A stretch of 64,000 nt of DNA, taken from assembly GCA_903892645.1 (NCBI GenBank), contig CAITJF010000152.1, forward strand, positions 2,205 through 66,204, written 5' to 3'. Within the stretch, counting starts at the first letter, position 1, and every line of letters starts with the position of its first letter. The translations under genes were made by a program, and so were the position numbers. The stretch is from an uncultured Nitrosomonadales bacterium (GTDB lineage Bacteria; Pseudomonadota; Gammaproteobacteria; Burkholderiales; Gallionellaceae). The notes under the pieces were generated by a model that was not told the DNA's origin, ran no database searches, and saw only the letters and a list, made by a program, of their open reading frames with translations. Shown one piece after another: positions 7,611 to 48,121 of this stretch.

Positions 7611-7641
7611 TGCATTTCTCCGATGCCACAACCCAATCAAA

Positions 7642-8475: not shown

Positions 8476-8485
8476 CGCCCTCTCC

Positions 8486-33120: not shown

Positions 33121-33729
33121 TCAGTTGAGCAATAGCTTAATATCATGCACAAGGGCATCCGCTCCTTGTCCATAAGCCGCGTGCAGGCGCAATCTCCCCG
33201 ACGGGTCGTAAATATAGGTTCCGACCGAGTGATCCAACGTATAGTTGGCGGGGCTCTTACCCGGTTCCTTGCTATAAAACAGGTGGTATTCCTTGGCGGT
33301 CTCGGCAATTTGTGCCGGCGTACCGTAGAGGCCCATGAATTTTGGATTAAACGAGGGAACGAATTGAGCCAGAAGTGCCTGAGTATCGCGCTCGGGGTCC
33401 AGGGTTATGAACAGAACCTGCACCTTGTCCGCGTCGGGACCGAGGCGTTTCATTACGAGAGCAAGCTCCGATAATGTATTCGGGCAGGCTTCAGGGCAAT
33501 GCGTGTACCCGAAAAACAATACAACAACTTTACCCTTAAAGTCAGATAAGGTGCGTGGTTTTCCCTGATGATCGGTCAACCGGAAATCTTTTCCGGAGTC
33601 GATCCCGGTAACATTGGTAGACTTGAACGGTTGTGCCGCTTGCGGCTGATTGCAGCCGCACAGGGATGCTATGGCCAGGCTCACAAGTAAAGATTTCAGG
33701 AACGGTTTAAAAAAAGCTGCTCTTGTCAT
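33121..33729 (-). CDS. SCO1/SenC-family copper chaperone / thiol-disulfide protein
   Basis: 202 aa. Lipoprotein-like signal (LAIASLCGC), the CPEAC (CxxxC) motif and a downstream His (LDHSVGTY). Confidence 0.85.
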   Translation of the reverse strand: MTRAAFFKPFLKSLLVSLAIASLCGCNQPQAAQPFKSTNVTGIDSGKDFRLTDHQGKPRTLSDFKGKVVVLFFGYTHCPEACPNTLSELALVMKRLGPDADKVQVLFITLDPERDTQALLAQFVPSFNPKFMGLYGTPAQIAETAKEYHLFYSKEPGKSPANYTLDHSVGTYIYDPSGRLRLHAAYGQGADALVHDIKLLLN

Positions 33730-33929: not shown

Positions 33930-34316
33930 ATGAATTTGTTATGGGTAAAAAACATTCACATTACTTGTGTGGCGTTGAGCTACACGTTGTTTTTCTTGCG
34001 CGGGGTGTGGCTGATTCAAGGCTCGCCCCGGCTGCGCCAGCGCTGGGTGAAAATTGTCCCGCATGTGATGGATACGCTGCTGTTGGCAAGCGCCATTACG
34101 CTTGCGATCGGCATCCGGCAATATCCCGGCGTGAATGCCTGGCTTACCGCCAAAGTGGTCGGCCTGCTGTTCTACATCGGGTTTGGCATGATGGCGTTTC
34201 GTTTTGGCAAAACCATGCGCGCAAGAATCTCGGCATGGGTAGCAGCGCAACTGGTATTTTTTTATATCGTGGCGGTCGCACTCACACATAATCCACTGCC
34301 TTTTTCCGTGCTATAA
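33930..34316 (+). CDS. SirB2-family inner-membrane protein
   Basis: 128 aa, four hydrophobic helices, N-terminus NIHITCVALSYTLFFLRG typical of the SirB2 family. The call is from recall. Confidence 0.6.
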   Translation: MNLLWVKNIHITCVALSYTLFFLRGVWLIQGSPRLRQRWVKIVPHVMDTLLLASAITLAIGIRQYPGVNAWLTAKVVGLLFYIGFGMMAFRFGKTMRARISAWVAAQLVFFYIVAVALTHNPLPFSVL

Positions 34317-35102: not shown

Positions 35103-35116
35103 TTGATATACATCAA
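35103..35116 (+). promoter_or_regulatory. Perfect FNR box TTGAT-ATAC-ATCAA (class II-type position)
   Basis: TTGATATACATCAA. A -10-like GAAAAT sits at 35139-35144, 22 nt after the box. This is the only strong signal upstream of the heme-copper cluster. Confidence 0.7.
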
Positions 35117-35206
35117 AGAAACTTGGTGCTTGGGCAACGAAAATTGCCATCGCTAAAAGCGGTACCCGAATTTCATTCAATTACCATTCACCCGGAGAAC
35201 TAACCG

Positions 35207-35347
35207 ATGGAAGCAACAAAGCAAGGCGGGATTGAAACAACCGGTGGGCAAGGAACGCGGATGTCCAGCTGGCGCATGAGTTTCATAGGTGTGATGTGCT
35301 TAGTGGTTTTTTACGTAGTTTGGGGTATCGTCAAAATGATTTTGTAG
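35207..35347 (+). CDS. 46-aa single-TM micro-protein (below ORF-track cutoff)
   Basis: GGAGA lies 7 nt upstream of the ATG. Peptide: MEATKQGGIETTGGQGTRMSSWRMSFIGVMCLVVFYVVWGIVKMIL. Confidence 0.4.
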   Translation: MEATKQGGIETTGGQGTRMSSWRMSFIGVMCLVVFYVVWGIVKMIL

Positions 35348-35407
35348 TTAGATTTTTGGAACTTTTTTTTGGAACTATTTTTTAGTTATCGTGCCAGGGA
35401 GGCCATT

Positions 35408-35557
35408 ATGTCAAATGAAGAGAGTTTTAGACCCACCGTCTTGCAACGCATCCTCGACGACATCAATTTTATGATGTGTTTGGGGTTGGTTATACCGACG
35501 GTGTTTTACACATTGTGGGGAGTCATGGAAGTTGCCACCATCCCATTGGGCAAATAA
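35408..35557 (+). CDS. 49-aa single-TM micro-protein (possible small oxidase subunit)
   Basis: GGGAGG lies 6 nt upstream of ATG 35408. Peptide: MSNEESFRPTVLQRILDDINFMMCLGLVIPTVFYTLWGVMEVATIPLGK. The track lists a TTG-extended form from 35369. Confidence 0.45.
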   Translation: MSNEESFRPTVLQRILDDINFMMCLGLVIPTVFYTLWGVMEVATIPLGK

Positions 35558-35609
35558 CCGCATTCACGCTGGATTTATTTTAATTTTTTCTTTTTAAGAG
35601 GGGGCTTCA

Positions 35610-36155
35610 ATGGGTTATTCATTCACAGCACCAGCAAAGAATTGGGCGACCGAACCGATCGAGCGTACCGAAATCTTATGGATCGTTATCGCAGGTTCGT
35701 GGTGTCTTTTCATGTTTTGCTGGATGATTGCCTGGCACTGGATTGGCAATCAAAACATGGCCAACGAAGCGTATAAAACTACGCCGGAAGCTTACGCTAA
35801 AAAAGTCGAGGAATTCACCGCGAAATATACCGTGCGCCAAGACAAGAGCGATCCCAGTTTGCCGGTGGTGGCTCCGCCTCCCGGCAGTGACGTTTATCTG
35901 GCGGCAAGCCGTTGGCAATGGCGTCCGATAGTGGAGTTCCAGAAGGGTAAATCCTACCGTGTGCATATTTCGTCACTGGATTGGGATCATGGCTTTTCCC
36001 TGCAGCCGGAGAATATCAATTTCACGGCTTATCCCGGATACGATGCAGTTGTGACCATGACACCCAACAAGACTGGCACATTTGGCATTGTGTGTAATGA
36101 ATATTGCGGCATCGGTCACCACACCATGCTCGGCAGAATTTACGTAAAGGAGTAG
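35610..36155 (+). CDS. Heme-copper oxidoreductase subunit II, ba3-like, CuA centre intact
   Basis: 181 aa, one N-terminal TM helix and a cupredoxin domain. CuA ligands: H127 (DHGF) and C162-x3-C166-x3-H170-x2-M173 in CNEYCGIGHHTMLGRIYVKE. Confidence 0.85.
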   Translation: MGYSFTAPAKNWATEPIERTEILWIVIAGSWCLFMFCWMIAWHWIGNQNMANEAYKTTPEAYAKKVEEFTAKYTVRQDKSDPSLPVVAPPPGSDVYLAASRWQWRPIVEFQKGKSYRVHISSLDWDHGFSLQPENINFTAYPGYDAVVTMTPNKTGTFGIVCNEYCGIGHHTMLGRIYVKE

Positions 36156-36158
36156 GAA

Positions 36159-37856
36159 ATGGCTATAACTACCGCACAATCACCCTTTCGCACGGACCCG
36201 CTGACCGGTCTGCGCATTGACCTGACCGCCCAAGCACTGGTGAAGGTCAATGCAGTACTCGCCGTCGTGTTCCTGCTGGTCGGCGGAACTGCCGGCTTGC
36301 TGGTCGCCTTGACGCGCTGGCCGGCGGTGCACTTGCTGCCCGCTGACCTGTTCTATATGGCGCTCACCGCACACGGCATTGTAGCGCTCATGGTGTGGAT
36401 CATCTTTTTCGAAATAGCGGTGCTGTATTTCGTAGCCTCGACCTTGCTTAGCTGCCGGTTGGCGGCGCCAAAACTGGCTTGGACGCAGGTTGTGCTGATG
36501 GTTGTTGGCGCAGCCATGACTTTTGTCGCAATCCTGCAAGGCGATTCCAGCGTCATGATGACGTCTTATGTGCCGATGAATGCCGCCCCGCATTTCTACC
36601 TGGGCTTGATCCTGTTTGCGGTGGGTGCGCTAATTGGTTGCGGCGTATTCTGGGGTACATTAGTGATCGCTGCGGAAGAAAAGACCTACGAAGGCACGTT
36701 GCCGCTGACGGTGTATGGTTGCGTAATCGCCACGATTATCGCGGTTTTCACCATCGCTTCTGGTGCCATCATCCTGATCCCGACGTTCCTGTGGTCGCTG
36801 GGCCTGATCAAGAGCATAGACCCGATGATGTATCGCGTAATCTGGTGGGCGTTCGGCCACTCGTCGCAGCAAATCAACGTGACCGCCCATATTACGATTT
36901 GGTACACGGTTGCCGGTCTGGCGTTCGGCGCCAAGCCGATGTCGGAAAAAGTGAGCCGTACCGCTTTCCTGTTGTATATCTGCTTCCTGCAATTTGGTTC
37001 GGTGCACCACTTGTTGTCCGATCCGGGATTGAGCTCGGCGTGGAAAATCTTCAACACCAGCTACATGATGTATCTGGCGGTGTTGGCCAGCTTGATTCAC
37101 GGTCTGACCGTGCCTGGTTCGATCGAAGTGGCGCAGCGCAGGAGCGGGTTGAACAATGGCCTGTTCGAGTGGCTGCGTAAATGTCCCTGGGGCAATCCGG
37201 TATTCTCCTCCACGATCCTGTCGATCATCATTTTCGGCTTTATCGGCGGCGTTACCGGGGTGGTGATGAGTGTGGAGCAAGTTAATATGATCATCCACAA
37301 CACCATCTATGTGCCGGGGCATTTCCACGGTACGGTGGCGGGCGGTACTACGCTGGCTTTCATGGGACTGACCTACTATCTGATCCCGGTGCTGTTTCAG
37401 CGCCAAGTCATCATGAAGCCGTTGGCAGCCTTGCAGCCTTGGTTGTTTGGCATCGGGACATCGATATTCGCGATTGCCATAATGGGTGCGGGAACCTTGG
37501 GTGTGCCACGCCGTCATTGGGATGTCACTTTTGCTGGGCAGGCGCTGGGTTTTGAATGGCCCGGTATGGCGCAAATGATGTTAGCCATCGGCGAAATAGG
37601 CGGTGTCATAGCGGTGTTGGGTGGCGCATTGTTCTGCGTGATCGTGGTGGGTTCCATCCTGATCGGCGAGCCGGTTCCAGCAAATGCCAAGAATATCGTG
37701 GCGCCTCCCGCCGATGCGGGCGGTCACAAGGAAATCGGTATGGGTGGCTTCGAAGCCCCAGGTACCTTTATCTTGGCCATGGTGCTGTTTGTAACCCTCG
37801 TGCTCTACTACTTCGTCAACTTCAAGTATCTGGCCACTCTGTGGACATTGACCTGA
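36159..37856 (+). CDS. Heme-copper oxidoreductase subunit I, B-family-like but lacking the cross-link tyrosine (candidate NO reductase)
   Basis: 565 aa. Ligand set H72, H234, H283/H284 and H388/H390. The residue four positions after the first CuB His is Gln (GHSSQQ, codon 36870-36872) rather than the Tyr of GHPxVY. Confidence 0.85.
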   Translation: MAITTAQSPFRTDPLTGLRIDLTAQALVKVNAVLAVVFLLVGGTAGLLVALTRWPAVHLLPADLFYMALTAHGIVALMVWIIFFEIAVLYFVASTLLSCRLAAPKLAWTQVVLMVVGAAMTFVAILQGDSSVMMTSYVPMNAAPHFYLGLILFAVGALIGCGVFWGTLVIAAEEKTYEGTLPLTVYGCVIATIIAVFTIASGAIILIPTFLWSLGLIKSIDPMMYRVIWWAFGHSSQQINVTAHITIWYTVAGLAFGAKPMSEKVSRTAFLLYICFLQFGSVHHLLSDPGLSSAWKIFNTSYMMYLAVLASLIHGLTVPGSIEVAQRRSGLNNGLFEWLRKCPWGNPVFSSTILSIIIFGFIGGVTGVVMSVEQVNMIIHNTIYVPGHFHGTVAGGTTLAFMGLTYYLIPVLFQRQVIMKPLAALQPWLFGIGTSIFAIAIMGAGTLGVPRRHWDVTFAGQALGFEWPGMAQMMLAIGEIGGVIAVLGGALFCVIVVGSILIGEPVPANAKNIVAPPADAGGHKEIGMGGFEAPGTFILAMVLFVTLVLYYFVNFKYLATLWTLT

Positions 37857-37881
37857 TGGGCGCAAGTTGACCTAAGGCGTG

Positions 37882-37918
37882 CCAAAACGGTGGGAGGTTT
37901 TTTCTCCTGCCGTTTTGG
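37882..37918 (+). other. Stem-loop between subunit I and the heme O synthase gene
   Basis: Perfect 9-bp stem CCAAAACGG (37882-37890) / CCGTTTTGG (37910-37918), extended by a partial inner GGGAG/CTCC pairing. No trailing U-run follows. Confidence 0.4.
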
Positions 37919-37971
37919 AGTTAAAGGCACAAGGTGTGGATATTTCACGCCCAACCACTTGGGGTTTGTAT

Positions 37972-38829
37972 ATGGGAACAGCTATTAAACAAGTTACCGA
38001 TTTGTTCAAGTTAAGGATCGGTATCGTCATCAGCTTCACTGCATTGGCTGGTGTGGCGGTAACGCCGGGTTCGCTGGCTGGCTGGAAAATTGTATTGTTG
38101 GGGCTTGCGGTGTTGATTTCTTCAGCCAGCGCGGGTGCATTCAATCAATACGTTGAGCGGGATATTGACGTGCGCATGGCGCGCACCTGTAAGCGTCCCT
38201 TTGTCACCGGCACGCTTCAGCATGGCCCGTTCTGGCTGTGCGTGATTCTTGTCATGCTGGCAGGTTCGGTGTCGGCGGCAGTAGTGGCGCTCAATTCCGT
38301 CTCGGCCCTGTTTGTATTTTTGGGGGCGTTTTTCTATGCTGTGGTTTACACAGTTTGGTTGAAACGTCGTACCTGGATGAACATCGTGATCGGCGGATTG
38401 GCCGGTAGTTTCGCGGTGCTGGCAGGAGCCGCTGCGGTAAACCCGCAGCTAAGCTCGCAAGCGTTGATTCTGGCAGGAATATTGTTTTTGTGGACACCAC
38501 CGCATTTCTGGAGCTTGGCAATCGCCTATCACAAGGATTACGATGCCGCAAAAGTCCCCATGTTGCCGGTGGTGGTGGGTGACGAACGCGCTGCACGCAT
38601 TATTTTTGGCAGCACTGTGCTGCTGGTGGCGACTTCGTTGATGCCGGTTTTCTACGGCATGGGCTGGATTTATTTCATTGGTGCGGCGAGCGGCGGTGCG
38701 TATTTTCTGCTGAAAAGCGTGCAGTTGATGCGTATGCCAAATCGTGCAACAGCGATGTCATGCTTCCATGCTTCACTCATGCAATTGAGTCTATTGCTGA
38801 CCGCAGCGATGATAGACGCGTCTTTGTAG
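37972..38829 (+). CDS. ctaB: Protoheme IX farnesyltransferase (heme O synthase)
   Basis: The likely start is MGTAIKQVTDLFKLRIGIVISFTALAG at 37972 (track ORF from 37879). UbiA-family motif NQYVERDIDVRMARTCKRPFVTG. Confidence 0.88.
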   Translation: MGTAIKQVTDLFKLRIGIVISFTALAGVAVTPGSLAGWKIVLLGLAVLISSASAGAFNQYVERDIDVRMARTCKRPFVTGTLQHGPFWLCVILVMLAGSVSAAVVALNSVSALFVFLGAFFYAVVYTVWLKRRTWMNIVIGGLAGSFAVLAGAAAVNPQLSSQALILAGILFLWTPPHFWSLAIAYHKDYDAAKVPMLPVVVGDERAARIIFGSTVLLVATSLMPVFYGMGWIYFIGAASGGAYFLLKSVQLMRMPNRATAMSCFHASLMQLSLLLTAAMIDASL

Positions 38830-38837
38830 TTTTGCCG

Positions 38838-39686
38838 ATGCGTCTATGGCTGTTGCTGGGCCTGTTGGGGATGGCGGGAGCGGCGTTTGCCTCAGGGGGA
38901 AACGTTCAACCCGCAGCACCCGTTAAATTCGATCAAAAATCTGCATTGCAATTCAGTCAAAGTGTAGTCGGCCAGCAGATGGCCGACTATGCCTTGCTTG
39001 ACCGCAACGGTCAGGCAGTCAGGCTTTCCAGTTATCGCGGCAAGCCGGTGCTGGTGAGCTTTATTTATACCGGTTGTTCGGTAACCTGCCCCGCCACCAC
39101 ACAATATCTTGCCAAAGCGGTCAAATACATGCAGAACGCTCTTGGTGCTGACAGCTTCCAGGTGTTGACTGTCGGCTTCAATGCCCCTTGGGATTCGCCA
39201 CAGGCGATGCGCGATTTTGCTTCACGGCAAAATATCAAGTTGCCACACTGGGAGTTTCTGAGTGCAGATGCGGCAACCATGCAGAATTTCACGCGAGACC
39301 TCGGATTCAGCTACGCCTATTCGGTCACTGGTTTCGATCATATTTCCCAGCTCACCTTGCTTGACCAGGAAGGCAAGGTTTATCGCCAAATATACGGTGA
39401 TAATTTCGAGTTGCCTCAGATGGGTGAGCCGTTAAAAAAACTGGTGGGCAATGTGCAAACCCAGTATCCCGGTTGGGAGGGTTTGAGCAACCGCATTCGC
39501 TTGTTCTGTACCGTTTATGATCCCAGCACGGGATCCTATACCACCGATTATTCGTTTTTCTTCGGCATATTTATCAGCTTGGTGATGACTTATTACTTCG
39601 TCAAATGGATTGTCCGTGAATGGCGCCGCGCCCCACGCCGCAACCCTCCCAAAGCCAATGAGGCAGTTGAAATAAAACCATCCTAG
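38838..39686 (+). CDS. SCO1/SenC-family protein with C-terminal membrane helix
   Basis: The likely start is MRLWLLLGLLGMAGAAFA at 38838. It has the thioredoxin-like CSVTC (CxxxC) motif, a conserved His (FDHISQ) and the C-terminal TM FFFGIFISLVMTYYFV. Confidence 0.8.
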   Translation: MRLWLLLGLLGMAGAAFASGGNVQPAAPVKFDQKSALQFSQSVVGQQMADYALLDRNGQAVRLSSYRGKPVLVSFIYTGCSVTCPATTQYLAKAVKYMQNALGADSFQVLTVGFNAPWDSPQAMRDFASRQNIKLPHWEFLSADAATMQNFTRDLGFSYAYSVTGFDHISQLTLLDQEGKVYRQIYGDNFELPQMGEPLKKLVGNVQTQYPGWEGLSNRIRLFCTVYDPSTGSYTTDYSFFFGIFISLVMTYYFVKWIVREWRRAPRRNPPKANEAVEIKPS

Positions 39687-39785
39687 CCATGCCTGCGCTC
39701 AGTGCTGAGTTCAGTAGTTGTGTAATCACGATCATTTTGAGCGATGCCATGGTTTATGCCTGTGAAGTAGGCGGTAAAACAAAAA

Positions 39786-39814
39786 TTGCAACCAGGAAAA
39801 TCAGCTGTCATAAT
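39786..39814 (+). promoter_or_regulatory. Candidate sigma70 promoter for the second half of the cluster
   Basis: TTGCAA (39786-39791), a 17-nt spacer, then CATAAT (39809-39814), in the 177-bp AT-rich spacer after the SCO gene. Confidence 0.45.
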
Positions 39815-39863
39815 GCTAAAAGGTATATTATTAATACATCTTTTATAATATGATTAATATGGG

Positions 39864-41795
39864 GTGGTCATGATCAAGTTGATACAGCGTATTGGGCAGG
39901 GTCTGTTGCTGCGTGTGGAAAAAGGATTCAATGCCATTTTCGGCGCGGAGCTGAATCCGTTGTACCAGCTTGGCGCCATTTTGTTTTTCCTGTTCTGGGT
40001 GGTATTGGGGAGCGGGTTTTATCTTTACGCGTTTTATCGCACCGGAGTAAGCGAGGCGTATTCTTCGGTCGATAAAATCACCCACGAACAATGGTATCTG
40101 GGCGGTATCATGCGCAGCCTGCACCGCTATGCCTCGGATGGCATGGTGGTCTTGGTGCTGGTGCACATGGCGCGCAATTTTGTGATGAACCGCTTGAGCG
40201 GCTTCCGTGCTTTTTCCTGGCTTACCGGTATCGTGCTCCTGCTACTGTTAATTATTTCCGGCATCAATGGCTACTGGCTGGTGTGGGATCAGCTTGCGCA
40301 ATTCGTTGCCGTGGCCAGCACGGAATTCCTGGACTGGCTGCCGGTTTTCGTCTCCCCATTGGTGCGCAATTTCCTGACCCCGGACAGCATCAATGACCGT
40401 TTCTTCTCGTTGCTGTCTTTCATGCATTTGGGCATTCCGCTTGGGATGCTGATTTTCATCATGGTTCACACCCAACGGGTGAGCGGAGCCAAGACCCAGC
40501 CTTCGAGGCCACTTGCGATTGGACTAGGCCTTACGCTGCTGGTGCTGGCTCTGGTTAAGCCAGCTTTGAGCCAGGGCGGCCAGGCTGACCTGAGCACGAT
40601 TGCCGCGCAAATCAAGCTGGACTGGTTTTTCATGGCGGTTTACCCACTGATTTATATGTGGTCGCCGAACCAGTTGTGGGCGCTGGTTGGTGGCTTCCTG
40701 GCTTTTCTCCTGCTGTTGCCATTGCTGGCGCGCACCAAACGCATGAGCGAAGGTTTCCAGATCACCACTGCGCCGAGCATGCGCACCTTTACGGCCAAGC
40801 CGGGTGAAACTGTATTGGAAGCAGCGTTGCGTCAGGATATTCGGCTGCCTTACACATGTCGCGATGGAGCCTGCGGAAATTGCAAGGGCACCATTCTGCA
40901 TGGGGCGGTTGATTATGGCGTGCATCAGGAAGATGCCTTGAGCGAGCAGGACAAGCAGGCAGGCAAGGCGTTGTTCTGCTGCGCCACGCCGTTGTCCGAT
41001 ATGGAAATTGAATATTACGAAAATGAAACACTGAAACAAGTCCCAGTGAAGCTCATGCAGTGCCGTGTACATAAGATGGTGCGCGCCACGCCGGATGTGA
41101 TGGTGCTGTATTTGAAAATGCCGCAGGGCAGTAAACTGCAATTTTTTGCCGGCCAATATCTCGACATTCTGCTGGAGGATGGTGCACGCAGAAGCTTCTC
41201 GTTCGCCAATGCCCCGCACGATGACGGATTTATCCAATTGCACATCCGTCTAATTCCAGGCGGCAAGTTCACCAATCATGTGTTCACGCAAATGAAGGAA
41301 GGCGACGAGCTGAGCTTTGAAGGCCCGCTTGGTACTTTCTTCCTGAACGAGAAAAGTGATATGCCGATAATTTTTGTGGCCGGCGCTACTGGCTTCGCAC
41401 CAGTGAAAAGTATGTTGGATCACGCTTTTTACACTGGCTCCAAGCGCCGTATGCTGTTGTACTGGGGGGTGAAAATGCGCAAAGATTTATACATGGCCGA
41501 TTTGCCGGAGCTCTGGCAACGGGAGCACGACAATTTTACTTTTATACCGGTGCTGTCCGAGCCGGGGCCGGATGATAACTGGCAGGGGCGTACCGGCTTG
41601 GTGCATGAGGCCATTTTGCAGGATCACCCTGACCTGAGTGGCTTCCAGGTTTATGCTTGCGGCTCGATGCTAATGGTACAGGCAGCGCGTCCGGCTTTTC
41701 TCGCGCAGGGGTTGCCGGAAAATGCATGTTTTTCGGATGCCTTCCTGTTGCCTACACATAAGGTAGCGCAACCTGCCGTGGAGGTGCAACCATGA
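39864..41795 (+). CDS. Fusion protein: cytochrome b-type membrane domain + plant-type 2Fe-2S ferredoxin + FNR-like FAD/NAD(P)H reductase
   Basis: Start at GTG 39864 or ATG 39870. Four heme-ligand His sit in cytochrome b context (SLHRYASD, LVHMARNF, FMHLGIP, MVHTQR). Also present: CRDGACGNC...CC, then RSFSF, GPLG and GATGFAP motifs. Confidence 0.8.
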   Translation: MVMIKLIQRIGQGLLLRVEKGFNAIFGAELNPLYQLGAILFFLFWVVLGSGFYLYAFYRTGVSEAYSSVDKITHEQWYLGGIMRSLHRYASDGMVVLVLVHMARNFVMNRLSGFRAFSWLTGIVLLLLLIISGINGYWLVWDQLAQFVAVASTEFLDWLPVFVSPLVRNFLTPDSINDRFFSLLSFMHLGIPLGMLIFIMVHTQRVSGAKTQPSRPLAIGLGLTLLVLALVKPALSQGGQADLSTIAAQIKLDWFFMAVYPLIYMWSPNQLWALVGGFLAFLLLLPLLARTKRMSEGFQITTAPSMRTFTAKPGETVLEAALRQDIRLPYTCRDGACGNCKGTILHGAVDYGVHQEDALSEQDKQAGKALFCCATPLSDMEIEYYENETLKQVPVKLMQCRVHKMVRATPDVMVLYLKMPQGSKLQFFAGQYLDILLEDGARRSFSFANAPHDDGFIQLHIRLIPGGKFTNHVFTQMKEGDELSFEGPLGTFFLNEKSDMPIIFVAGATGFAPVKSMLDHAFYTGSKRRMLLYWGVKMRKDLYMADLPELWQREHDNFTFIPVLSEPGPDDNWQGRTGLVHEAILQDHPDLSGFQVYACGSMLMVQAARPAFLAQGLPENACFSDAFLLPTHKVAQPAVEVQP

Positions 41796-42304
41796 GCCAG
41801 CCGCTGAAATACTTGGGGCAAGGGCTAGCCTACGCGCTGTTCGCCGTGGTGCTTGGTTATTTCTCCACTTCACCGGAGTACGCGCACTTGCCGGCGGATT
41901 CCGCGCTGCTTAAGCTGAGTTTCAACCACGCGGCCCAGCGAAAGAAACCGTGCCACGAGCGCACCGACGAGGAAATGGCCAAGCTGGCAAAAAATATGCG
42001 GATACGCAAGGATTGTCCGCGCGAACGCTCCGACGTGGTGGTGGAGTTGGAGATGGACGGCAAGCAGTTGTACCATGTCGTGCTGCACCCGCCCGGCCTG
42101 TCGCATGACGGTGCCGCTTCAATATATCGCCGCCTGCCGGTGCCGGCAGGCCCCCATCGTTTCGTGGCGCGCCTGAAGGATATGGAGGGGGGCGATTTCA
42201 GCTTTGTGCACGAGGAAAACATTACTCTTGGCGCCGGCAAGGTAATGGTGATTGATTTCAAGGCCGACGTTCCCGGCGCCCCCGGCTTTATGTTTAAGAG
42301 TTAG
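41792..42304 (+). CDS. Membrane-anchored hypothetical protein, translationally coupled to the preceding gene
   Basis: Its ATG overlaps the upstream TGA (ATGA at 41792-41795). It has an N-terminal TM (LAYALFAVVLGYF) and a ~130-aa soluble domain with two Cys. No family recognised. Confidence 0.6.
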   Translation: MSQPLKYLGQGLAYALFAVVLGYFSTSPEYAHLPADSALLKLSFNHAAQRKKPCHERTDEEMAKLAKNMRIRKDCPRERSDVVVELEMDGKQLYHVVLHPPGLSHDGAASIYRRLPVPAGPHRFVARLKDMEGGDFSFVHEENITLGAGKVMVIDFKADVPGAPGFMFKS

Positions 42305-42310
42305 GACAAC

Positions 42311-43717
42311 ATGACTATTCCCGTGGAAGCGAACTCTCCTTATGATGCGCCGCCGGATGTTGGCGGTGTGTATGCGTTGCCCACGCCGCATCAAGCCAGC
42401 CAGCGCTTGGCTGCCGGCTGGCTGTGGCTGAGTTTTGCCGCACTGGTGGGGGCAGGTTTTTTTGCTCTGCTGGTAGTGATGGCGCGTACACCTTATGTGT
42501 CCGATATTTTTCCCACGGTAGATTTTTTCCGTAGCGCCCTGGTGGTGCATGTGGATTTGTCGGTGCTATTGTGGTTCTTTGCTTTCGCCGGTGTGCTGTG
42601 GGGTGCAGCCTCCCCTCCAAAGTGGATGCCCCTCGGTTGGGTAGCGCTGTTGCTGGCGGTGGTAGGCGTGATAGTGGTTGTGGTTTCGCCGTTTGTCAGC
42701 ACCGGCGGGCCGCTCATGAATAACTATATTCCGGTGCTGGAAAACAGGGTGTTCCTTACCGGTTTGTTCCTGTTTGGTTGCGGTATCGGGTTGCTTGCCT
42801 TGCGTGGCCTGCTGACGATTCCCCTCACCGGGTTTGGTGCAAATAGAGATGGCGGCATACTTTGTTTCGGCCTTTATACTGCCGCAGTGGCGACGACGAT
42901 GGCGCTCATCGCATTTTCCTGGGCATTCGCAACCATTCCGTTTTTTGTGCGCGGTCTTCCTTATTACGAGGCGCTGTTTTGGGGTGGTGGGCATGTGATG
43001 CAATTCGCCTATACCCTGCTGATGTTGGTTGGCTGGTTGTGGCTGTCCTCTGAATGCGGTGCCCAGGTGCCATTAACTCCGCGCATATCACTGTTCCTGT
43101 TCGCCTTGGGGGTTGCACCGGTGCTGTTTACACCGCTGATCTACGCCCTTTATGAGACCAATACCGGCGATAACATGGGAATGTTCATCTGGATGATGAA
43201 AATCGGTGGCAGCCTGGCGGCTGTGCCGATTGGGCTGGCGGTAGCGTATGCAATGGGGAACCGTGGCTATCCTGACCCTTCGAAGCGTCCGCTGTTTGCT
43301 GCCTTGCTGTGTTCGATGGTTTTGTTTGCGGTGGGCGGTGGCATTAGCCTCATGATCAAGGATAGCAACACCATCATCACCGCGCATTATCATGGTACCG
43401 GGGGCGCTGTGAGCCTGGCTTTCATGGGGCTGGCTTTTGTGCTGCTGCCCAAGCTGGGGTTTCGTGCGCCTGATTTGAAGCTTGCCAGCTGGCAGCCTTA
43501 TGTGTACGGTATCGGGCAGTTGCTGCACATCATCGGGCTGCTGTGGTCGGGTGGGTACGGCGTGCAACGCAAGGTCGCTGGAGCAGCCCAGGAATTGCAC
43601 AGTTTCGGGCAGGTCGCCGGAATGGGATTGATGGGAATAGGCGGGTTAATCGCCGTGATCGGCGGCCTGATGTTTCTGGTGGTGGTGTTTCGTGCAATGA
43701 GGGGGCGAACACGTTAG
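42311..43717 (+). CDS. Heme-copper subunit-I-like 12-TM protein lacking two CuB histidines
   Basis: 468 aa. It retains H80 (VVHVDLSVLLWFF), H228 (WGGGHVMQF) and H359/H361 (AHYHGT). The HH position, 49/50 residues after H228, is I277-Y278 (codons 43139-43144). Confidence 0.75.
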   Translation: MTIPVEANSPYDAPPDVGGVYALPTPHQASQRLAAGWLWLSFAALVGAGFFALLVVMARTPYVSDIFPTVDFFRSALVVHVDLSVLLWFFAFAGVLWGAASPPKWMPLGWVALLLAVVGVIVVVVSPFVSTGGPLMNNYIPVLENRVFLTGLFLFGCGIGLLALRGLLTIPLTGFGANRDGGILCFGLYTAAVATTMALIAFSWAFATIPFFVRGLPYYEALFWGGGHVMQFAYTLLMLVGWLWLSSECGAQVPLTPRISLFLFALGVAPVLFTPLIYALYETNTGDNMGMFIWMMKIGGSLAAVPIGLAVAYAMGNRGYPDPSKRPLFAALLCSMVLFAVGGGISLMIKDSNTIITAHYHGTGGAVSLAFMGLAFVLLPKLGFRAPDLKLASWQPYVYGIGQLLHIIGLLWSGGYGVQRKVAGAAQELHSFGQVAGMGLMGIGGLIAVIGGLMFLVVVFRAMRGRTR

Positions 43718-43804
43718 CGCCGCAGGCGGCCATTACGCCACGCTTTTCGGCTTTGTAGCTCGTTACGACTTCTCTTATTTTGACAGCAACGTAGTTTGCA
43801 TAGA

Positions 43805-45382
43805 ATGCGCAAATATCTACAAAACTTGTTGCTGCGTCTGGAAAACGCATTCAATGCGCCGTTCGGTCAGGCATTGAATCCTTGGTACCACCTCGGCGCG
43901 ATCACCTTTTATCTGTTCTGGATCGTGGTGGTAAGCGGCGTTTATCTCTATATCTTTTACCGAACCGGGGTGGATGAAGCCTACCAGTCGGTCGAACGCC
44001 TTACCCATGATCAATGGTATGCCGGCGGCGTGATGCGCAGCCTGCACCGCTATGCTTCTGACGGCATCGTGGTGACGATGCTGCTGCATATGCTGCGCAA
44101 TTTTATTACCGGACGTTTCCACAGCTTCCGCTGGTTTTCCTGGGTGAGCGGGGTTTTTCTGATCTGGCTGGTTTACACTTGCGGCATCAACGGCTACTGG
44201 ATGGTGTGGGACAGGCTGGCGCAATTCATTGCCGTGGGCACTGCGGAATGGTTCGATTGGATGCCGCTGTTCAGCCAGCCGCTGGCGCGCAACTTTCTCG
44301 TGCAAGGCGATGTCAATGATCGCTTCTTTGCACTGCTGTCGTTTGCCCACATCACCATTCCGCTGGTATTGCTGCTGTTCATGTGGATACATACCAAGCG
44401 CATGAACCACGCCGAAACCAACCCTCCCCTGCGCCTTGCGGTCGGCACGCTGCTTATGCTGCTGGCGCTGTCGCTGGTCAAGCCGGCGCTAAGCCACGCA
44501 CATGCCGATCTGGCGCTGTTGCCTGATGTGATCCGACTTGACTGGTTTTATCTGGCGCCGTATCCGCTGCTTTATATCTGGTCGCCTGGCGCGGTGTGGG
44601 TGTTGGTTGGCGGGATTACCGCGCTGCTCCTATTGGTGCCGTGGTTATTCAGGCCGCGCACGCGCCCTGCGGTGGCGGAGGTGCATCTGGACAATTGCAA
44701 CGGTTGTGCACGTTGCGCTGCCGACTGTCCTTATTCGGCCATTGTGATGCATCCGCGCCAGGACGGCAGGCCGCACCAATTACAGCCAGTGGTAGATCCG
44801 GACTTGTGCGCAAGTTGCGGCATTTGCGTCGGTGCCTGTCCATCTTCCATGCCGTTCCGCAGTAACGAACTGGTGAGCGGTATCGAGTTGCCGGATCAGG
44901 AGTTGGCGACGCTACGTGCAGGTATTGATCGTACACTGGCGGTGTTGCACGGCGATGCGCGCGTTATGGTGTTTGGCTGCGATTGTGCCTACGATGTGCA
45001 TGCATTGCAGTCGGAGGGAGTGGCGGCGCTTTCGCTCCCCTGCATCGGCATGCTGCCACCAGCGTTTATTGACTACGTGCTGCGCGACGCACGTGTTGAT
45101 GGGGTGATGGTTGCCGGTTGCCGTGAAGGGGATTGCCAATACCGTCTTGGCATCCGCTGGACGGAGTTGCGCCTGGCACGCCAGCGAGTACCGCATTTGC
45201 GCCAGCGAGTGCCACTTCAGCGTATCGAGTTTTGTTGGGCCGGCATACAGGATGATGAGCGGGCACGCGCGGAACTCGGCACTCTGCGTGCGCGGGTGGC
45301 GCAACTGCCGCGAGAAATAATCATGGAAGAGGATTCGCGAGAGCATGAACGCCAGTCCGGTGACAAAAACCAACCTGATTAA
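43805..45382 (+). CDS. Fusion protein: cytochrome b-type membrane domain + 2x[4Fe-4S] ferredoxin + MvhD/FlpD-like domain
   Basis: The likely start is ATG 43805 (MRKYLQNLLLRLENAF, parallel to its paralogue); the track ORF starts at 43796. The N-terminal half is a paralogue of 39864..41795 with the same four His. Then come CNGCARCAADCP and CASCGICVGACP, then FGCDC...LPCIGML...VAGCREGDCQYRLG. Confidence 0.8.
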   Translation: MRKYLQNLLLRLENAFNAPFGQALNPWYHLGAITFYLFWIVVVSGVYLYIFYRTGVDEAYQSVERLTHDQWYAGGVMRSLHRYASDGIVVTMLLHMLRNFITGRFHSFRWFSWVSGVFLIWLVYTCGINGYWMVWDRLAQFIAVGTAEWFDWMPLFSQPLARNFLVQGDVNDRFFALLSFAHITIPLVLLLFMWIHTKRMNHAETNPPLRLAVGTLLMLLALSLVKPALSHAHADLALLPDVIRLDWFYLAPYPLLYIWSPGAVWVLVGGITALLLLVPWLFRPRTRPAVAEVHLDNCNGCARCAADCPYSAIVMHPRQDGRPHQLQPVVDPDLCASCGICVGACPSSMPFRSNELVSGIELPDQELATLRAGIDRTLAVLHGDARVMVFGCDCAYDVHALQSEGVAALSLPCIGMLPPAFIDYVLRDARVDGVMVAGCREGDCQYRLGIRWTELRLARQRVPHLRQRVPLQRIEFCWAGIQDDERARAELGTLRARVAQLPREIIMEEDSREHERQSGDKNQPD

Positions 45383-46299
45383 CGCCTGCGCAGCCGGTAG
45401 TTAAGTGACACCAGAATGAGCAGCAGGAATGCCGCTGTGGCGTTATGAAGCAGCACCAGAAAAAGCGGCAGGCTGTATGCCACGGCGCTGATTCCCAGAG
45501 CGACTTGCAGCGTGAGCGCGGCGATCAGCAGCATGCCGCTGCGCCGCAAATTTTCCCGGATCAGGCAGGCTCCTAACCAGGCAAGATAACAAAACACCAG
45601 CAGCGCGGAGAAACGGTGCGCCATGTGCAAAGTCTGCTGCGCAGCACCCGGAATGAAGTTGCCGCCCTGTGGCACTTTCAACACCTGAAAAGGATTGAAG
45701 TCCGCCAGTGATGCGTGCTGTAGCCATCCATCGCAGCCGGATGGACCGGTGCAGCTTAAGGCAGCGAAACTCGCACTGACCATGCCCCCCAGCGTTATTT
45801 GTACCACGAGCAGCCCCAACCCCAGTGATACCCACCTGCGCAAACGTGAAGAGGCAGCGTATCGAGGCACGTATCCGAGATGTAATCGCCACAGCAGCGC
45901 CAGCATTCCCAGGCCGCCGAGCAGGTTGCCGAGCGCAACCGCTGGCAGGTGTGCGTTGTGCGTCCATTTGCCGAGCACTGCAAGGAAAGCCGTTAGCCCC
46001 AATAATGCCAGCGCAGGCGGAAAATCACCGGGTGCCACGCGGCGGCGGCGCCAGGCGAGTGAGGTAATGGCAAGGGCGGTAAAACCCATGGTGCTCGCCG
46101 CAATGCGGTGAGTGGTATTTATCCAGTTCGGATGGGGAGGGGCAAGGCCAGCCAGATTGTGTCCATAACATGCAGGCCGGTCGGGGCAGCCCAACCCGGC
46201 GCCAGTCAGGCGCATGTGGGCACTTAGCAAGATGATTATCGCCATTAGTGCGAAGGTGAACAGCACCAAGCCGTGGAATACGCGATTACCGTCAGCCAT
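45379..46299 (-). CDS. ctaA: Heme A synthase (COX15/CtaA family)
   Basis: 306-aa polytopic protein with N-terminal LLSAHMRLTGAGLGCPDRPACYG and paired His-containing helices. Its stop overlaps the convergent gene's stop (TTAA at 45379-45382). Confidence 0.8.
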   Translation of the reverse strand: MADGNRVFHGLVLFTFALMAIIILLSAHMRLTGAGLGCPDRPACYGHNLAGLAPPHPNWINTTHRIAASTMGFTALAITSLAWRRRRVAPGDFPPALALLGLTAFLAVLGKWTHNAHLPAVALGNLLGGLGMLALLWRLHLGYVPRYAASSRLRRWVSLGLGLLVVQITLGGMVSASFAALSCTGPSGCDGWLQHASLADFNPFQVLKVPQGGNFIPGAAQQTLHMAHRFSALLVFCYLAWLGACLIRENLRRSGMLLIAALTLQVALGISAVAYSLPLFLVLLHNATAAFLLLILVSLNYRLRRR

Positions 46300-46336
46300 G
46301 TGACCTCAGAAGGCGAACCTTACCTGAATCTCTTTT

Positions 46337-46516
46337 TCAGGGATTAATGAAGGTAATTATTTGGGAGGTGGTTACCGCAAGAACCGAGATGATAACCAAA
46401 AAAACCAGGCTACGATATTTGAAGCGGCCACCGTAGGCGTTCTCGAGACGGTCAAGCAGCCAGTCTGATACGAAATAAAGACCAAGGGCGATCAGGGTGT
46501 AATAAAGGTAAGCCAT
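46337..46516 (-). CDS. 59-aa two-TM micro-protein upstream of ctaA (below ORF-track cutoff)
   Basis: Hand translation: MAYLYYTLIALGLYFVSDWLLDRLENAYGGRFKYRSLVFLVIISVLAVTTSQIITFINP. There is no clear Shine-Dalgarno, so coding status is uncertain. Confidence 0.3.
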   Translation of the reverse strand: MAYLYYTLIALGLYFVSDWLLDRLENAYGGRFKYRSLVFLVIISVLAVTTSQIITFINP

Positions 46517-46734: not shown

Positions 46735-47049
46735 TTACAGCGAAAGAATCCAACCCACTGTGGACTTTATTTCAGCATCGGTCATCTTGCCTTTTTGCGC
46801 TGGCATTGGCATGGTGCCCCATACTCCGGAGCCGCCTTCTGTTACCTTTTTGATCAGCTTGGCTTCGGCAGTAGCGTCACCTTTGTATTTTGCGGCCACT
46901 TCCTTATATCCTGGCCCGACGAGTTTCATGTCCACTGCGTGGCAGTTCAGGCAGCCGGCTTTTTTGGCGAGGTCTTTCCCATCTTCGGCAAATGCCGGTG
47001 CGCTGAGGAAACAAGCGGTAATTCCTGCAATGATCAAAACTCTTTTCAT
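46735..47049 (-). CDS. Soluble class I cytochrome c (c551/c552-type)
   Basis: The likely start is MKRVLIIAGITACFLSAPAFA at 47049 with a GGAGA Shine-Dalgarno. Heme motif CLNCH and distal Met in WGTMPMP. Confidence 0.88.
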   Translation of the reverse strand: MKRVLIIAGITACFLSAPAFAEDGKDLAKKAGCLNCHAVDMKLVGPGYKEVAAKYKGDATAEAKLIKKVTEGGSGVWGTMPMPAQKGKMTDAEIKSTVGWILSL

Positions 47050-47144: not shown

Positions 47145-47158
47145 TTGATGTAAATCAA
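47145..47158 (-). promoter_or_regulatory. Perfect FNR box TTGAT-GTAA-ATCAA upstream of the cytochrome c gene
   Basis: TTGATGTAAATCAA. On the gene strand a -10-like CAAAAT (47122-47117) lies 22 nt downstream of the box. Confidence 0.65.
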
Positions 47159-47318: not shown

Positions 47319-48053
47319 CTAGAGGAATTGCGGCGGCGGGCCGACGTAGGCTTGTAACCCAGGCAGATTATGAAGCTCCACCGATTTGTTGCGTATGTTA
47401 ATCAACCCGATCCCCTGGAAGTGTGACAGTGTGCGGCTGACCGTTTCCAGCTTCATCCCGAGATAGCTGCCGATTTCCTGGCGCGTCATGCGCAAATGGA
47501 ATGATGTGGGCGAGTAACCGCGTGTGGCAAAGCGCTGCGACAGGTTAAGCAGGAAGGCAGCCAAACGCTCTTCTGCGCGCATCGAGCCGAGCAGCAGCAT
47601 GATGCCTTGGTCACGCACGATCTCGCGGCTCAGGATGCGGTGCAGGTGGCGTTGCAGAGAGGGTAATTTGCGGCTGAGTTCCTCCAGTTGGCTAAAAGGG
47701 ATCTCGCATACCTCGCTGTCTTCCAAGGCGATCGCATCGCAGGTATGTGCATCGCTGCTGATGGCATCCAACCCGATGATTTCCCCTGCCATTTGGAAGC
47801 CGGTGACCTGTTCGCGGCCATCTTCGTGCAGCACTTGGGTCTTGAAAAAACCGGTACGGATGGCATATAGAGACTGGAATTTTGCGCCACTGCGGTATAA
47901 GTAATCGCCGCGCTGGTATGCGTGCTTCAGGCTGATTAAGTCATCCAGCTGCTCCAAGTCAGCCTCAGTGAGTTTCCTGGGCAGGCACAGCTCACGCAAG
48001 TTACAGCCGGAACAGGCGACTCTTAGCGGGGTTAGAGAGACGGATTTTTGCAC
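47319..48053 (-). CDS. fnr: FNR-type O2-sensing Crp/Fnr family regulator
   Basis: 244 aa. N-terminal Cys cluster ACSGCNLRELCLP plus an internal Cys. cNMP-like domain and the HTH recognition motif ETVSRTL (E--SR). Confidence 0.88.
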   Translation of the reverse strand: MQKSVSLTPLRVACSGCNLRELCLPRKLTEADLEQLDDLISLKHAYQRGDYLYRSGAKFQSLYAIRTGFFKTQVLHEDGREQVTGFQMAGEIIGLDAISSDAHTCDAIALEDSEVCEIPFSQLEELSRKLPSLQRHLHRILSREIVRDQGIMLLLGSMRAEERLAAFLLNLSQRFATRGYSPTSFHLRMTRQEIGSYLGMKLETVSRTLSHFQGIGLINIRNKSVELHNLPGLQAYVGPPPQFL

Positions 48054-48107: not shown

Positions 48108-48121
48108 TTGACCTATATCAA
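48108..48121 (+). promoter_or_regulatory. FNR box TTGAC-CTAT-ATCAA in the fnr-hemN divergent spacer
   Basis: 9 of 10 consensus half-site positions match. CATAAT sits at 48143-48148, 21 nt after the box and about 30 nt before the hemN ATG. Confidence 0.65.

Follow-up and report, generated by a model that had tools for sequence, protein, structure and literature searches.

A conserved module built on a CuB-deficient haem-copper paralogue accompanies a predicted eNOR-type nitric oxide reductase operon in a Gallionellaceae bacterium

Introduction

The question raised by the locus described here is what role may be assigned to the second half of an eleven-kilobase respiratory gene cluster (positions 35103-46516), in which a paralogue of haem-copper oxidase (HCO) subunit I that has lost two copper-ligand histidines, here termed hcoX, is encoded between two cytochrome b fusion proteins. 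The cluster lies in a stretch of 64,000 nucleotides, referred to throughout as the window, from an uncultured Nitrosomonadales bacterium (Gallionellaceae; GenBank assembly GCA_903892645.1, contig CAITJF010000152.1, positions 2,205 to 66,204). The window's nearest relatives are metagenome-assembled genomes (MAGs) of Nitrosomonadales/Gallionellaceae, and an Rfam scan of the whole window gave no match. An earlier note, made from the sequence alone, had listed twelve features and proposed that they form an undescribed redox system. All twelve are present, as judged by open reading frame (ORF) listing with Pfam and NCBIfam scans, which are the basis for gene content in this work.

The cluster as such has, contrary to that note, been described, in that this operon, with this gene set, already appears in a preprint of May 2026 on Ferrigenium straubiae KS (bioRxiv 10.64898/2026.01.22.701106). 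The genes given there are eNOR II, eNOR I, haem O synthase, Sco1 and Cytbc1CCC-like protein 1, followed by a hypothetical protein, an 'eNOR scaffold protein', a small 'PerM' and Cytbc1CCC-like protein 2; the scaffold protein, annotated as COX subunit I, is the counterpart of hcoX (bioRxiv 10.64898/2026.01.22.701106). The second-half module has been noticed this once and is without a characterised counterpart; the earlier statement that no characterised system matches it stands. What is added here is the breadth of the module, its core as defined by natural gene fusions, and its occurrence outside eNOR operons.

The subunit I paralogue hcoX

The module consists of the following genes.

42311-43717, plus strand: hcoX, paralogue of HCO subunit I predicted to hold two haems and no CuB
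39870-41795, plus strand: cybFNR, with Cytochrome_B, Fer2 [2Fe-2S], FAD_binding_6 and NAD_binding_1 domains (Pfam)
41792-42304, plus strand: p170, an N-terminal transmembrane anchor followed by an immunoglobulin (Ig)-like beta-sandwich
43805-45382, plus strand: cybFeS, with Cytochrome_B, 2x[4Fe-4S] and FlpD/MvhD-like domains (Pfam)
46337-46516, minus strand: m59, a conserved two-transmembrane micro-protein of 59 aa

The match of hcoX to Pfam COX1 is weak (39 bits), and a search with its profile against PDB sequences retrieved no solved HCO at E<=0.01; the fold emerged only from profile-profile alignment (hhalign), AlphaFold2 modelling and Foldseek comparison. The hcoX profile aligns with that of eNOR subunit I over 431 columns at 99.8% probability, and the model (predicted local distance difference test score, pLDDT, 78; predicted TM-score, pTM, 0.84) gives TM-scores of 0.57-0.74, mostly about 0.7, against HCO subunit I chains. 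The hhalign and AlphaFold2 results agree on a twelve-helix subunit I fold with both haem sites.

The hcoX family comprises 718 clusters (50% identity, E<=1e-30), and conservation was computed over 137 representatives of such clusters. Near-invariant in these are H80, N138, Y139, H228, Q231, S335, H359, Y360, H361, R420 and K421, of which H80 and H361 align with the ligands of the low-spin haem (bis-His), H359 with the proximal ligand of the high-spin haem, and R420-K421 with the propionate-binding RR pair. H228, the first CuB histidine, is the only one of the three CuB/FeB histidines kept; the CuB HH pair is replaced by I277-Y278, at positions that vary across the representatives. The residue at the His+4 position, which is the cross-linked Tyr in ba3 oxidases and Gln in eNOR, is F232, with Phe in 104 of the 137; hcoX has neither the cross-linked Tyr nor a family-specific substitute there. 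Because both haem sites are kept and two of the three CuB histidines are lost, it is very probable that hcoX binds two haems and no CuB or FeB. A search for hcoX homologues in a plasmid collection found none.

Loss of the CuB ligands would suit a dead scaffold or pseudo-enzyme that templates folding or assembly of eNOR subunit I, the cytochrome b fusions being unrelated to it, as would the periplasmic tetratricopeptide repeat (TPR) fusions in related clusters, expression of hcoX at levels sub-stoichiometric to eNOR, and the name 'eNOR scaffold protein' given in the preprint (bioRxiv 10.64898/2026.01.22.701106). However, the haem ligands, the propionate R/K pair and H228/Q231 are near-invariant across representatives that are otherwise divergent, hcoX remains where eNOR is absent, and an electron-transfer role is hard to avoid given that hcoX is, in some loci, fused directly to a di-haem cytochrome b; a purely structural role is accordingly very improbable.

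Cytochrome b fusions, p170 and m59

The membrane modules of the two cytochrome b fusions are of the same type. Each has a bc1-like H-x13-H pattern in both helix B and helix D (haem-ligand pairs H87/H101 and H188/H202 in cybFNR, H84/H98 and H185/H199 in cybFeS), matches Pfam Cytochrome_B (85 and 68 bits, respectively), has cytochrome b6 as its nearest PDB match (1e-20), and carries in the ef-loop a PEWY-like LDWF(F/Y) motif with conserved D and W. Since each module has six transmembrane helices, the Fe-S and flavin domains are predicted to be cytoplasmic. The reductase module of cybFNR is homologous to that of NO-inducible flavohaemoprotein (NF009805, 1.5e-21).

One alternative is that the second half is a respiratory partner of eNOR, as proposed in the preprint and, in similar form, in the earlier note. 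Quinol would be oxidised at a Qo-like site of the cytochrome b fusions, or these would link NAD(P)H/ferredoxin with the membrane, and, in a supercomplex with eNOR, nitric oxide (NO) reduction would drive the reduction of NAD(P)+/ferredoxin or NAD(P)H would feed NO reduction. The bc1/b6-type modules, with four haem-ligand histidines and the PEWY-like LDWF, fit such a role; MvhD/HdrA2-like and FNR-like modules are characteristic of systems that bifurcate electrons, and many of the carriers grow lithoautotrophically by oxidising Fe(II) or sulfur and need reverse electron flow. Cytbc1CCC-like protein 1 (cytochrome b/FeS/FAD/NADH) has been proposed to be a quinol:NAD+ oxidoreductase (bioRxiv 10.64898/2026.01.22.701106). 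On the other side, none of the cluster genes scanned with Pfam and NCBIfam matches a Rieske or cytochrome c1/f family or offers another obvious high-potential partner, and, by reasoning, the transfer of P-side electrons to NAD+ would run against the membrane potential.

The start of p170 overlaps the end of cybFNR (ATGA, 41792-41795). No family in Pfam or NCBIfam matches p170; its AlphaFold2 model (pLDDT 88) consists of a transmembrane helix and the Ig-like sandwich, and a fold search of solved structures with this model, cupredoxin and Rieske proteins included, returned nothing at E<=0.001. Residues H46, C54, C75 and H122 are invariant. A cytoplasmic location of the p170 domain, suggested by a positive stretch after the transmembrane helix, is ruled out by the topology of the natural fusions described below: these hold a hydrophobic segment between the cytoplasmic part and the sandwich, which places the sandwich in the periplasm. 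p170 is probably a subunit-II-like partner of hcoX. For m59, 55 homologues were found, mostly beside hcoX, on either strand.

Synteny and gene fusions

At least 532 loci with relatives of hcoX are present in species-representative genomes; synteny was counted among the best 80 of these, of which 49 with full flanks were judged. The earlier note had treated the eleven kilobases as one cluster, a view open to refutation if homologues of the second-half genes were scattered in related genomes. They are not: eNOR-type coxI is present in 47 of the 49 loci, p170 in 46, cybFeS and m49 each in 45, ctaB in 43, cybFNR and m59 each in 40, and ctaA in 20, such that the second-half genes are syntenic with the first half, as one conserved unit, across many lineages. 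Co-encoding of eNOR with the module in all but two loci would also be expected of a respiratory partner, whereas the absence of cybFNR from nine of the 49 would not.

The carriers belong to Beta-, Gamma- and Zetaproteobacteria and to Thermodesulfobacteriota, and include Gallionellaceae, Burkholderiales (among them the isolate Simplicispira hankyongi), Sulfuricaulis, Thiotrichales, Mariprofundaceae and Ca. Muproteobacteria. Simplicispira is a heterotrophic genus, and the presence of the cluster there counts against the reading as a respiratory partner. In Thermodesulfobacteriota MAGs the order is eNOR-hcoX-CtaB-SCO, with a divergent cybFeS and p170; cybFeS is intact in one of these loci (L113) and split into a cytochrome b gene and an FeS/FlpD gene in another (L083). 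Public gene calls for L083 omit eNOR subunit I at about 6600-8834, where the ORF is intact and carries GHSSQQ; tables of gene context made from called genes can therefore miss eNOR.

Natural fusions define the core of the module. In at least four independent metagenome contigs the cytochrome b module and hcoX form one ORF, full length in L086 and L087 and cut by the contig end in L088 and L089, in an operon of the order coxII-coxI-ctaB-sco-cybFNR-p170-[cyt b::hcoX] from which the FeS/MvhD domain is absent. The earlier suggestion that the two cytochrome b modules work with the CuB-less paralogue is borne out by these single polypeptides. Loss of the FeS/MvhD domain in them counts against a respiratory partner of eNOR. 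A p170-like domain is fused to cytochrome b in L096 and L107, and to FeS/FlpD via a transmembrane segment in L083. One hcoX::CtaB fusion was also found, a singleton to which little weight is given. These fusions show that hcoX functions as a single unit with the cytochrome b module and p170. Judged from sequence, the constant core is hcoX, cytochrome b and p170, usually with m59, and the cytoplasmic input modules are interchangeable.

Some relatives of hcoX are extended. A C-terminal TPR domain is present in eight of ten extended-length representatives scanned, namely P0247, P0275, P0304, P0318, P0345, P0350, P0365 and P0386. In P0247, the one sequence inspected in this respect, the TPR domain comes after an extra transmembrane helix and would be periplasmic, and one such domain weakly resembles the TPR domain of CcmH/CycH.

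The eNOR genes

The first half of the cluster and the haem A synthase gene comprise the following.

35207-35347, plus strand: m46, a single-transmembrane micro-protein, tandem paralogue of m49
35408-35557, plus strand: m49, a single-transmembrane micro-protein of 49 aa, its conservation beginning at the internal ATG at 35408
35610-36155, plus strand: eNOR subunit II, with a CuA cupredoxin domain (Pfam COX2)
36159-37856, plus strand: eNOR subunit I, 565 aa, B-family-derived HCO with Gln for the catalytic Tyr
37879-38829, plus strand: haem O synthase CtaB (TIGR01473, 272 bits, above cut-off)
38838-39686, plus strand: SCO/SenC-like protein (Pfam SCO1-SenC, 4e-13), with a CSVTC motif and a C-terminal transmembrane helix
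45379-46299, minus strand: haem A synthase CtaA (Pfam COX15-CtaA, 8e-40), convergent

Subunit I matches Pfam COX1 at 224 bits, and its best PDB matches are the B-family ba3 oxidases of Aquifex and Thermus (4e-52 to 1e-46). When it is aligned with these, HPVVY of ba3 corresponds to H234-S-S-Q-Q238, i.e. the position of the cross-linked Tyr (His+4) is occupied by Gln; the GHSSQQ motif is kept in at least 95% of 56 subunit I homologues. The metal-ligand histidines H234, H283 and H284 and the haem ligands H72, H388 and H390 are all kept, with the same degree of conservation in these homologues. The CuA set of subunit II (H127, C162, E164, C166, H170 and M173) is complete and conserved.

Replacement of Tyr by Gln is reported to be diagnostic of eNOR, separating it from other NO reductases and from oxygen reductases (PMC8756737). 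In the published classification sNOR is a family distinct from eNOR (Murali et al. 2024, PMC11214002). The first half is assigned to eNOR because its catalytic Tyr is replaced by Gln (GHSSQQ), and the earlier assignment to the norSY-senC (sNOR) type is ruled out by the same residue. The locus is thus predicted to be an eNOR-type nitric oxide reductase operon with an FNR box in front, the eNOR half being, from its sequence, an additional member of a known family. The nearest described relative is that of F. straubiae KS, the subunit I of which was classed as eNOR by the authors of the preprint (bioRxiv 10.64898/2026.01.22.701106). In that operon (L018) the gene order is as in the window and the proteins are 55-68% identical, the coxI homologue in the same position having 66% identity to subunit I.

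The eNOR of Rhodothermus marinus has been characterised as an NO reductase with haem A(s); ctaA is present in many eNOR operons, and expression of eNOR in Gallionellaceae KS has been cited (Murali et al. 2024, PMC11214002). The presence of both ctaB and ctaA in the cluster fits the reported haem A(s) cofactor. The eNOR family, of which the R. marinus enzyme is the characterised member, has in common with the window the B-family-derived subunit I, the Tyr to Gln replacement, the three metal-ligand histidines and the CuA subunit II. The published description is, however, of a two-subunit enzyme and includes neither the cytochrome b fusions nor p170, hcoX or m59.

The micro-proteins m46 and m49 have in common the motif Q...(F/I/L)YxxWG. 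m46 is kept only in the five closest loci, the duplication being limited to the nearest relatives. The 47 homologues of m49, one of them in a Thermodesulfobacteriota locus, are always 5' of eNOR subunit II, and m49 is probably a small eNOR subunit. Even in Thermodesulfobacteriota, the gene for eNOR subunit II is preceded by an m49 counterpart, which is of 47 aa.

hcoX outside eNOR operons

In some lineages hcoX accompanies other enzymes. In Nitrospirae (L054, and the partial contig L056) it follows ctaB in an A-family caa3 operon that encodes a subunit I with HPAVY and HH and a subunit II with a cytochrome c domain; L046 reads A-type coxI, ctaB, cybFeS, hcoX, ctaA. Three Thermodesulfobacteriota contigs, from two MAG assemblies, carry hcoX with CtaB and a cytochrome c, and neither eNOR nor cytochrome b was found within 9 kb of these units, which sit opposite an operon of NifU, ferredoxin, mini-COX1, DUF1858, ScdA_N and Mrp. 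Since CtaB occurs with hcoX in the eNOR, caa3 and stand-alone contexts alike, the most constant partner of hcoX is the predicted haem O synthase. The occurrence of hcoX with caa3 oxidases, or without eNOR or cytochrome b, is not what a dedicated respiratory partner of eNOR would predict.

Two observations on neighbouring genes may be recorded. The mini-COX1 proteins are of 134-140 aa and match the COX1 profile in the helix-X region only; one in L083 (4867-5277) covers profile positions 342-404 with the sequence IHAHFN, and others are found in L084, L114 and L115 at about 7550-8120 (minus strand), opposite hcoX. In L054, a 158-aa ORF right after hcoX (11445-11921) is, by eye, like a regulator of the Rrf2/NsrR type.

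The units without eNOR bear on the proposal that hcoX is a free-standing haem b/o enzyme without copper that reduces NO, O2 or peroxide, its electrons coming from cytoplasmic NAD(P)H/ferredoxin through the cytochrome b wires or from cytochrome c. Such an enzyme would be a membrane analogue of flavohaemoglobin, shielding haem-copper enzymes or detoxifying NO beside eNOR. The layout is enzyme-like, with hcoX as subunit I, p170 resembling subunit II and an electron-input module; hcoX has invariant H228, Q231 and Y360 and, where the K channel would lie, an invariant Ser; the cybFNR reductase is related to that of NO-inducible flavohaemoprotein, as noted above; FNR/Dnr-type boxes are present; and hcoX-CtaB-cytochrome c units occur beside the NifU-Fdx-miniCOX1-DUF1858-ScdA_N-Mrp operons. 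However, hcoX is nearly always among ctaB, sco and ctaA in haem-copper operons, which would be odd for a detoxification enzyme, and in Nitrospirae it goes with a caa3 oxygen reductase. Moreover, all the NO reductases of the superfamily that have been described by Murali et al. (2024, PMC11214002) keep a non-haem metal site by the high-spin haem. A free-standing enzyme of this kind is therefore considered unlikely, though it is the strongest of the alternatives.

Expression in Ferrigenium straubiae KS

The transcript and protein data reported for F. straubiae KS allow the two halves to be compared. During denitrifying Fe(II) oxidation, values in transcripts per million were about 13000 for eNOR II, 2300 for eNOR I, 630 for ctaB and 340 for sco, and, for the module, about 550 for cybFNR, 460 for p170, 320 for hcoX, 300 for m59 and 70 for cybFeS; for all these genes values were higher under denitrifying than under microoxic growth (bioRxiv 10.64898/2026.01.22.701106). 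On the proteome scale of the preprint, the unit of which is not stated, eNOR I and II are at 31.6, hcoX at 28.0, cybFNR at 26.2, Sco1 at 24.7 and cybFeS at 23.9 (bioRxiv 10.64898/2026.01.22.701106). In this organism the module is expressed together with eNOR, and its levels are those of the assembly genes ctaB and sco. Thus the co-expression of the halves implied by the earlier note holds as to the condition, all genes being higher in denitrifying cells, but not as to level, transcripts of the second half being 5-40 times lower.

Detection of all the proteins under denitrifying Fe(II) oxidation (bioRxiv 10.64898/2026.01.22.701106) is as a respiratory partner of eNOR would require, but module transcripts 5-40 times below those of eNOR I/II, like those of ctaB and Sco1, and proteome values 3.6-7.7 units below them on the preprint scale, are not. 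Taken with the gene-context evidence given above, a role for the second half in the main respiratory path to eNOR appears rather improbable.

The earlier note had also envisaged a wire from the cytoplasmic NAD(P)H/ferredoxin pool, through the membrane, to a CuA enzyme. The CuA endpoint is weakened, because second-half transcripts in F. straubiae are so far below those of eNOR I/II, because hcoX is also present in A-family caa3 operons, and because in some Thermodesulfobacteriota hcoX occurs only with haem O synthase and cytochrome c.

A possible role in haem maturation

The reading favoured here, tentatively and as something short of probable, is that the hcoX module serves reductant-driven maturation or handling of haem O/A(s), as suggested by gene context. 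There would be two inputs: electrons from NAD(P)H would pass via FAD to the [2Fe-2S] cluster of cybFNR, and those from a ferredoxin-level donor via the MvhD-like [2Fe-2S] to the 2x[4Fe-4S] clusters of cybFeS. The two b haems would then carry electrons across the membrane to hcoX, where the low-spin haem would pass them on to the high-spin haem, close to the periplasmic side. That electrons run between cytoplasmic NAD(P)H/Fe-S centres and the hcoX haems via the b haems is inferred with fair confidence. It may be that hcoX holds the farnesylated haem coming from the adjacent CtaB, and that reductant is spent there on an oxygenase-type or handling step, whereby haem A(s) would be supplied, at very low O2, to eNOR and, in other lineages, to caa3 oxidases. 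By analogy, the module would be a bacterial counterpart of the ferredoxin and ferredoxin-reductase requirement of Cox15, and an accessory of oxidase/NO reductase maturation outside the main respiratory path.

This reading is favoured because the module is set among ctaB, sco and ctaA, because CtaB is linked with it in every context, because two different families of haem-A-type enzymes accompany it, and because its expression in F. straubiae is at assembly-factor levels. The TPR fusions of some hcoX relatives argue in the same direction, TPR domains being frequent in assembly factors. So does the precedent of the eukaryotic haem A synthase Cox15, which needs a [2Fe-2S] ferredoxin, Yah1, and an FNR-type reductase, Arh1 (PMC7140478). 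cybFNR has domains of both these kinds, a Yah1-like [2Fe-2S] ferredoxin and a flavoprotein reductase, and is encoded beside ctaB and ctaA; the Cox15 system, however, uses soluble, separate components, with no cytochrome b wire and no HCO-like protein, such that the analogy is one of function, not of homology.

Several points weigh against a maturation role. The presence of ctaA in the window and in 20 of the 49 clusters means that hcoX is no simple substitute for CtaA. The PEWY-like LDWF of the cytochrome b modules would also fit quinol chemistry. The layout of subunit-I-like, subunit-II-like and electron-input components would be just as compatible with a free-standing enzyme for NO, O2 or peroxide, as would the invariant distal residues and the K-channel Ser. 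The ScdA_N, DUF1858, NifU and Mrp neighbours in Thermodesulfobacteriota are of types associated with Fe-S repair and nitrosative stress. The low expression of the module relative to eNOR comes from one organism, in a setting where membrane proteins are unevenly detected, and the 80 genome loci are those nearest to the query, not a random sample. A separate candidate, that hcoX is an O2-independent replacement for CtaA, was set aside, as ctaA co-occurs with it and, by reasoning, b-type haems are unlikely oxidants of a methyl group.

A broader claim can be made only as a possibility, and a somewhat doubtful one: the hcoX-p170-m59-cytochrome b unit may constitute a new class of copper-free, HCO-derived oxidoreductase, in which the two haems are reduced from the cytoplasm by way of di-haem cytochrome b wires with exchangeable NAD(P)H or Fe-S inputs and the chemistry is unlike that of any known HCO. 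Candidate chemistries for such a class are the making or installing of haem A(s) at near-zero O2, and NO reduction coupled to NAD(P)+/ferredoxin reduction in lithoautotrophs.

Comparison with known systems

The F. straubiae operon differs from that of the window in having m59 between hcoX and cybFeS, and in that its cluster is without ctaA and cytochrome c and no FNR box was found upstream, whereas all three are present in the window. The cytochrome b genes were regarded in the preprint as unusual and as possible markers of Ferrigenium (bioRxiv 10.64898/2026.01.22.701106); as found here, they are spread over several classes.

The sNOR system (norSY-senC-orf1), like the window, has a B-family-related subunit I without the catalytic Tyr, a CuA subunit and a co-encoded SenC/SCO protein. 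Its active-site signature differs, the Gln found in the window being reported to set eNOR apart (PMC8756737).

Co-encoding of a cytochrome b with a haem-copper I/II pair, as in the window, is also seen with the SoxABCD/SoxM enzymes of Sulfolobales and with bc-aa3 supercomplexes, and cluster proteins give weak NCBIfam matches to SoxC, SoxB and SoxA. In those systems cytochrome b feeds electrons to the haem-copper subunit pair, and the archaeal SoxABCD/SoxM enzymes use haem A(s). By contrast with the window, the SoxABCD/SoxM cytochromes b have no cytoplasmic Fe-S/flavin domains and feed a copper-containing oxidase; in the window the partner is without CuB, and cytochrome b is fused to NAD(P)H/Fe-S modules (in some loci, to the paralogue itself).

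Replacement of a metal ligand has precedents within the superfamily. NOD, about 800 aa in length, resembles qNOR. It and gNOR are, like hcoX, haem-copper proteins in which a CuB/FeB histidine is replaced (Murali et al. 2024, PMC11214002). In gNOR one His is changed to Asp, whereas hcoX, of about 460 aa, has lost two of the three histidines family-wide.

Cofactor genes, regulation and neighbouring genes

The remaining features, within and beside the cluster, are as follows.

35103-35116: FNR/CRP-family box TTGATATACATCAA, exact, 91 bp 5' of m46
39687-39869: AT-rich spacer, with TTGCAA-17-CATAAT at 39786-39814
46735-47049, minus strand: monohaem cytochrome c, 104 aa, with signal peptide and CLNCH (Pfam Cytochrom_C, 2.8e-11)
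47145-47158: second FNR box TTGATGTAAATCAA, exact, about 100 bp 5' of the cytochrome c start
47319-48053, minus strand: Fnr regulator, carrying an N-terminal Cys cluster (NF008365, 258 bits; cut-off 228)
48179-49582, plus strand: HemN, oxygen-independent coproporphyrinogen III oxidase (TIGR00538, 603 bits)

Motif statistics were obtained by comparison with shuffled sequences, 100 shuffles being used for the FNR boxes. With at most one mismatch allowed, the window holds eight FNR boxes where 2.07 would be expected, a number not attained in any of the 100 shuffles. A box at this threshold is located 5' of coxII in 22 of the 49 loci, including all the nearest relatives; the scan of these loci found none 5' of coxII in the Gallionella/Ferrigenium group. 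Since an fnr gene lies at 47319-48053 (Pfam cNMP_binding and HTH_Crp_2), the putative regulator of the boxes is encoded beside the cluster; it is divergent from hemN, with a one-mismatch FNR box (48108-48121) between them. With TTGAT-N4-ATCAA boxes at 35103 and 47145 and a cognate Fnr, the cluster is predicted to belong to an FNR regulon.

The cytochrome c gene, absent from the earlier note, lies in the 800-bp interval that separates m59 from the gene beyond. The same position is occupied by a cytochrome c gene in relatives L003-L005 and L007-L009, and in L012 it adjoins m59. Given this gene and the FNR box at 47145, the minus-strand unit consists of FNR box, cytochrome c, m59 and ctaA, an operon convergent with that of eNOR; the stop codons of ctaA and cybFeS overlap in TTAA (45379-45382). 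The monohaem cytochrome c, predicted to be periplasmic, is a candidate electron donor to CuA.

An internal promoter in the AT-rich spacer is possible. The TTGCAA-17-CATAAT sequence is, however, no evidence of one, since matches of this type are equally frequent in shuffled sequences (12 in the window, 10.7 expected).

The conserved region of the SCO-like protein begins at M27 of the longest ORF, with 38838 as the probable start, and no NCBIfam model matched the protein, which is predicted to be a thiol-disulfide or copper protein. It represents an atypical subfamily, with only a weak SCO1 match and a conserved C-terminal CTVYDP motif. Just upstream of the cluster, a further SCO1/SenC gene, this one canonical (33121-33729, minus strand, Pfam 1e-44), is accompanied by a SirB-family gene with four transmembrane segments (33930-34316). 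Homologues of both recur near the cluster in unrelated loci, e.g. L043, L045, L059, L092 and L101 for the canonical SCO and L012, L026, L044 and L055 for SirB.

Implications

In environmental data eNOR is reportedly one of the NO reductases met with most often, and it is reported to be a source of N2O; the operon carries a conserved and expressed five-gene module. This module is a candidate for the supply of electrons to bacterial haem A synthesis, and for the maturation of haem A(s) enzymes under near-anoxic denitrification, an issue raised for Ferrigenium. Were the module instead respiratory, it would bear on how Fe(II) oxidisers generate NAD(P)H. Carriers available as isolates include Simplicispira hankyongi and F. 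straubiae. Either way, an oxidase scaffold appears to have been reused without its copper site.

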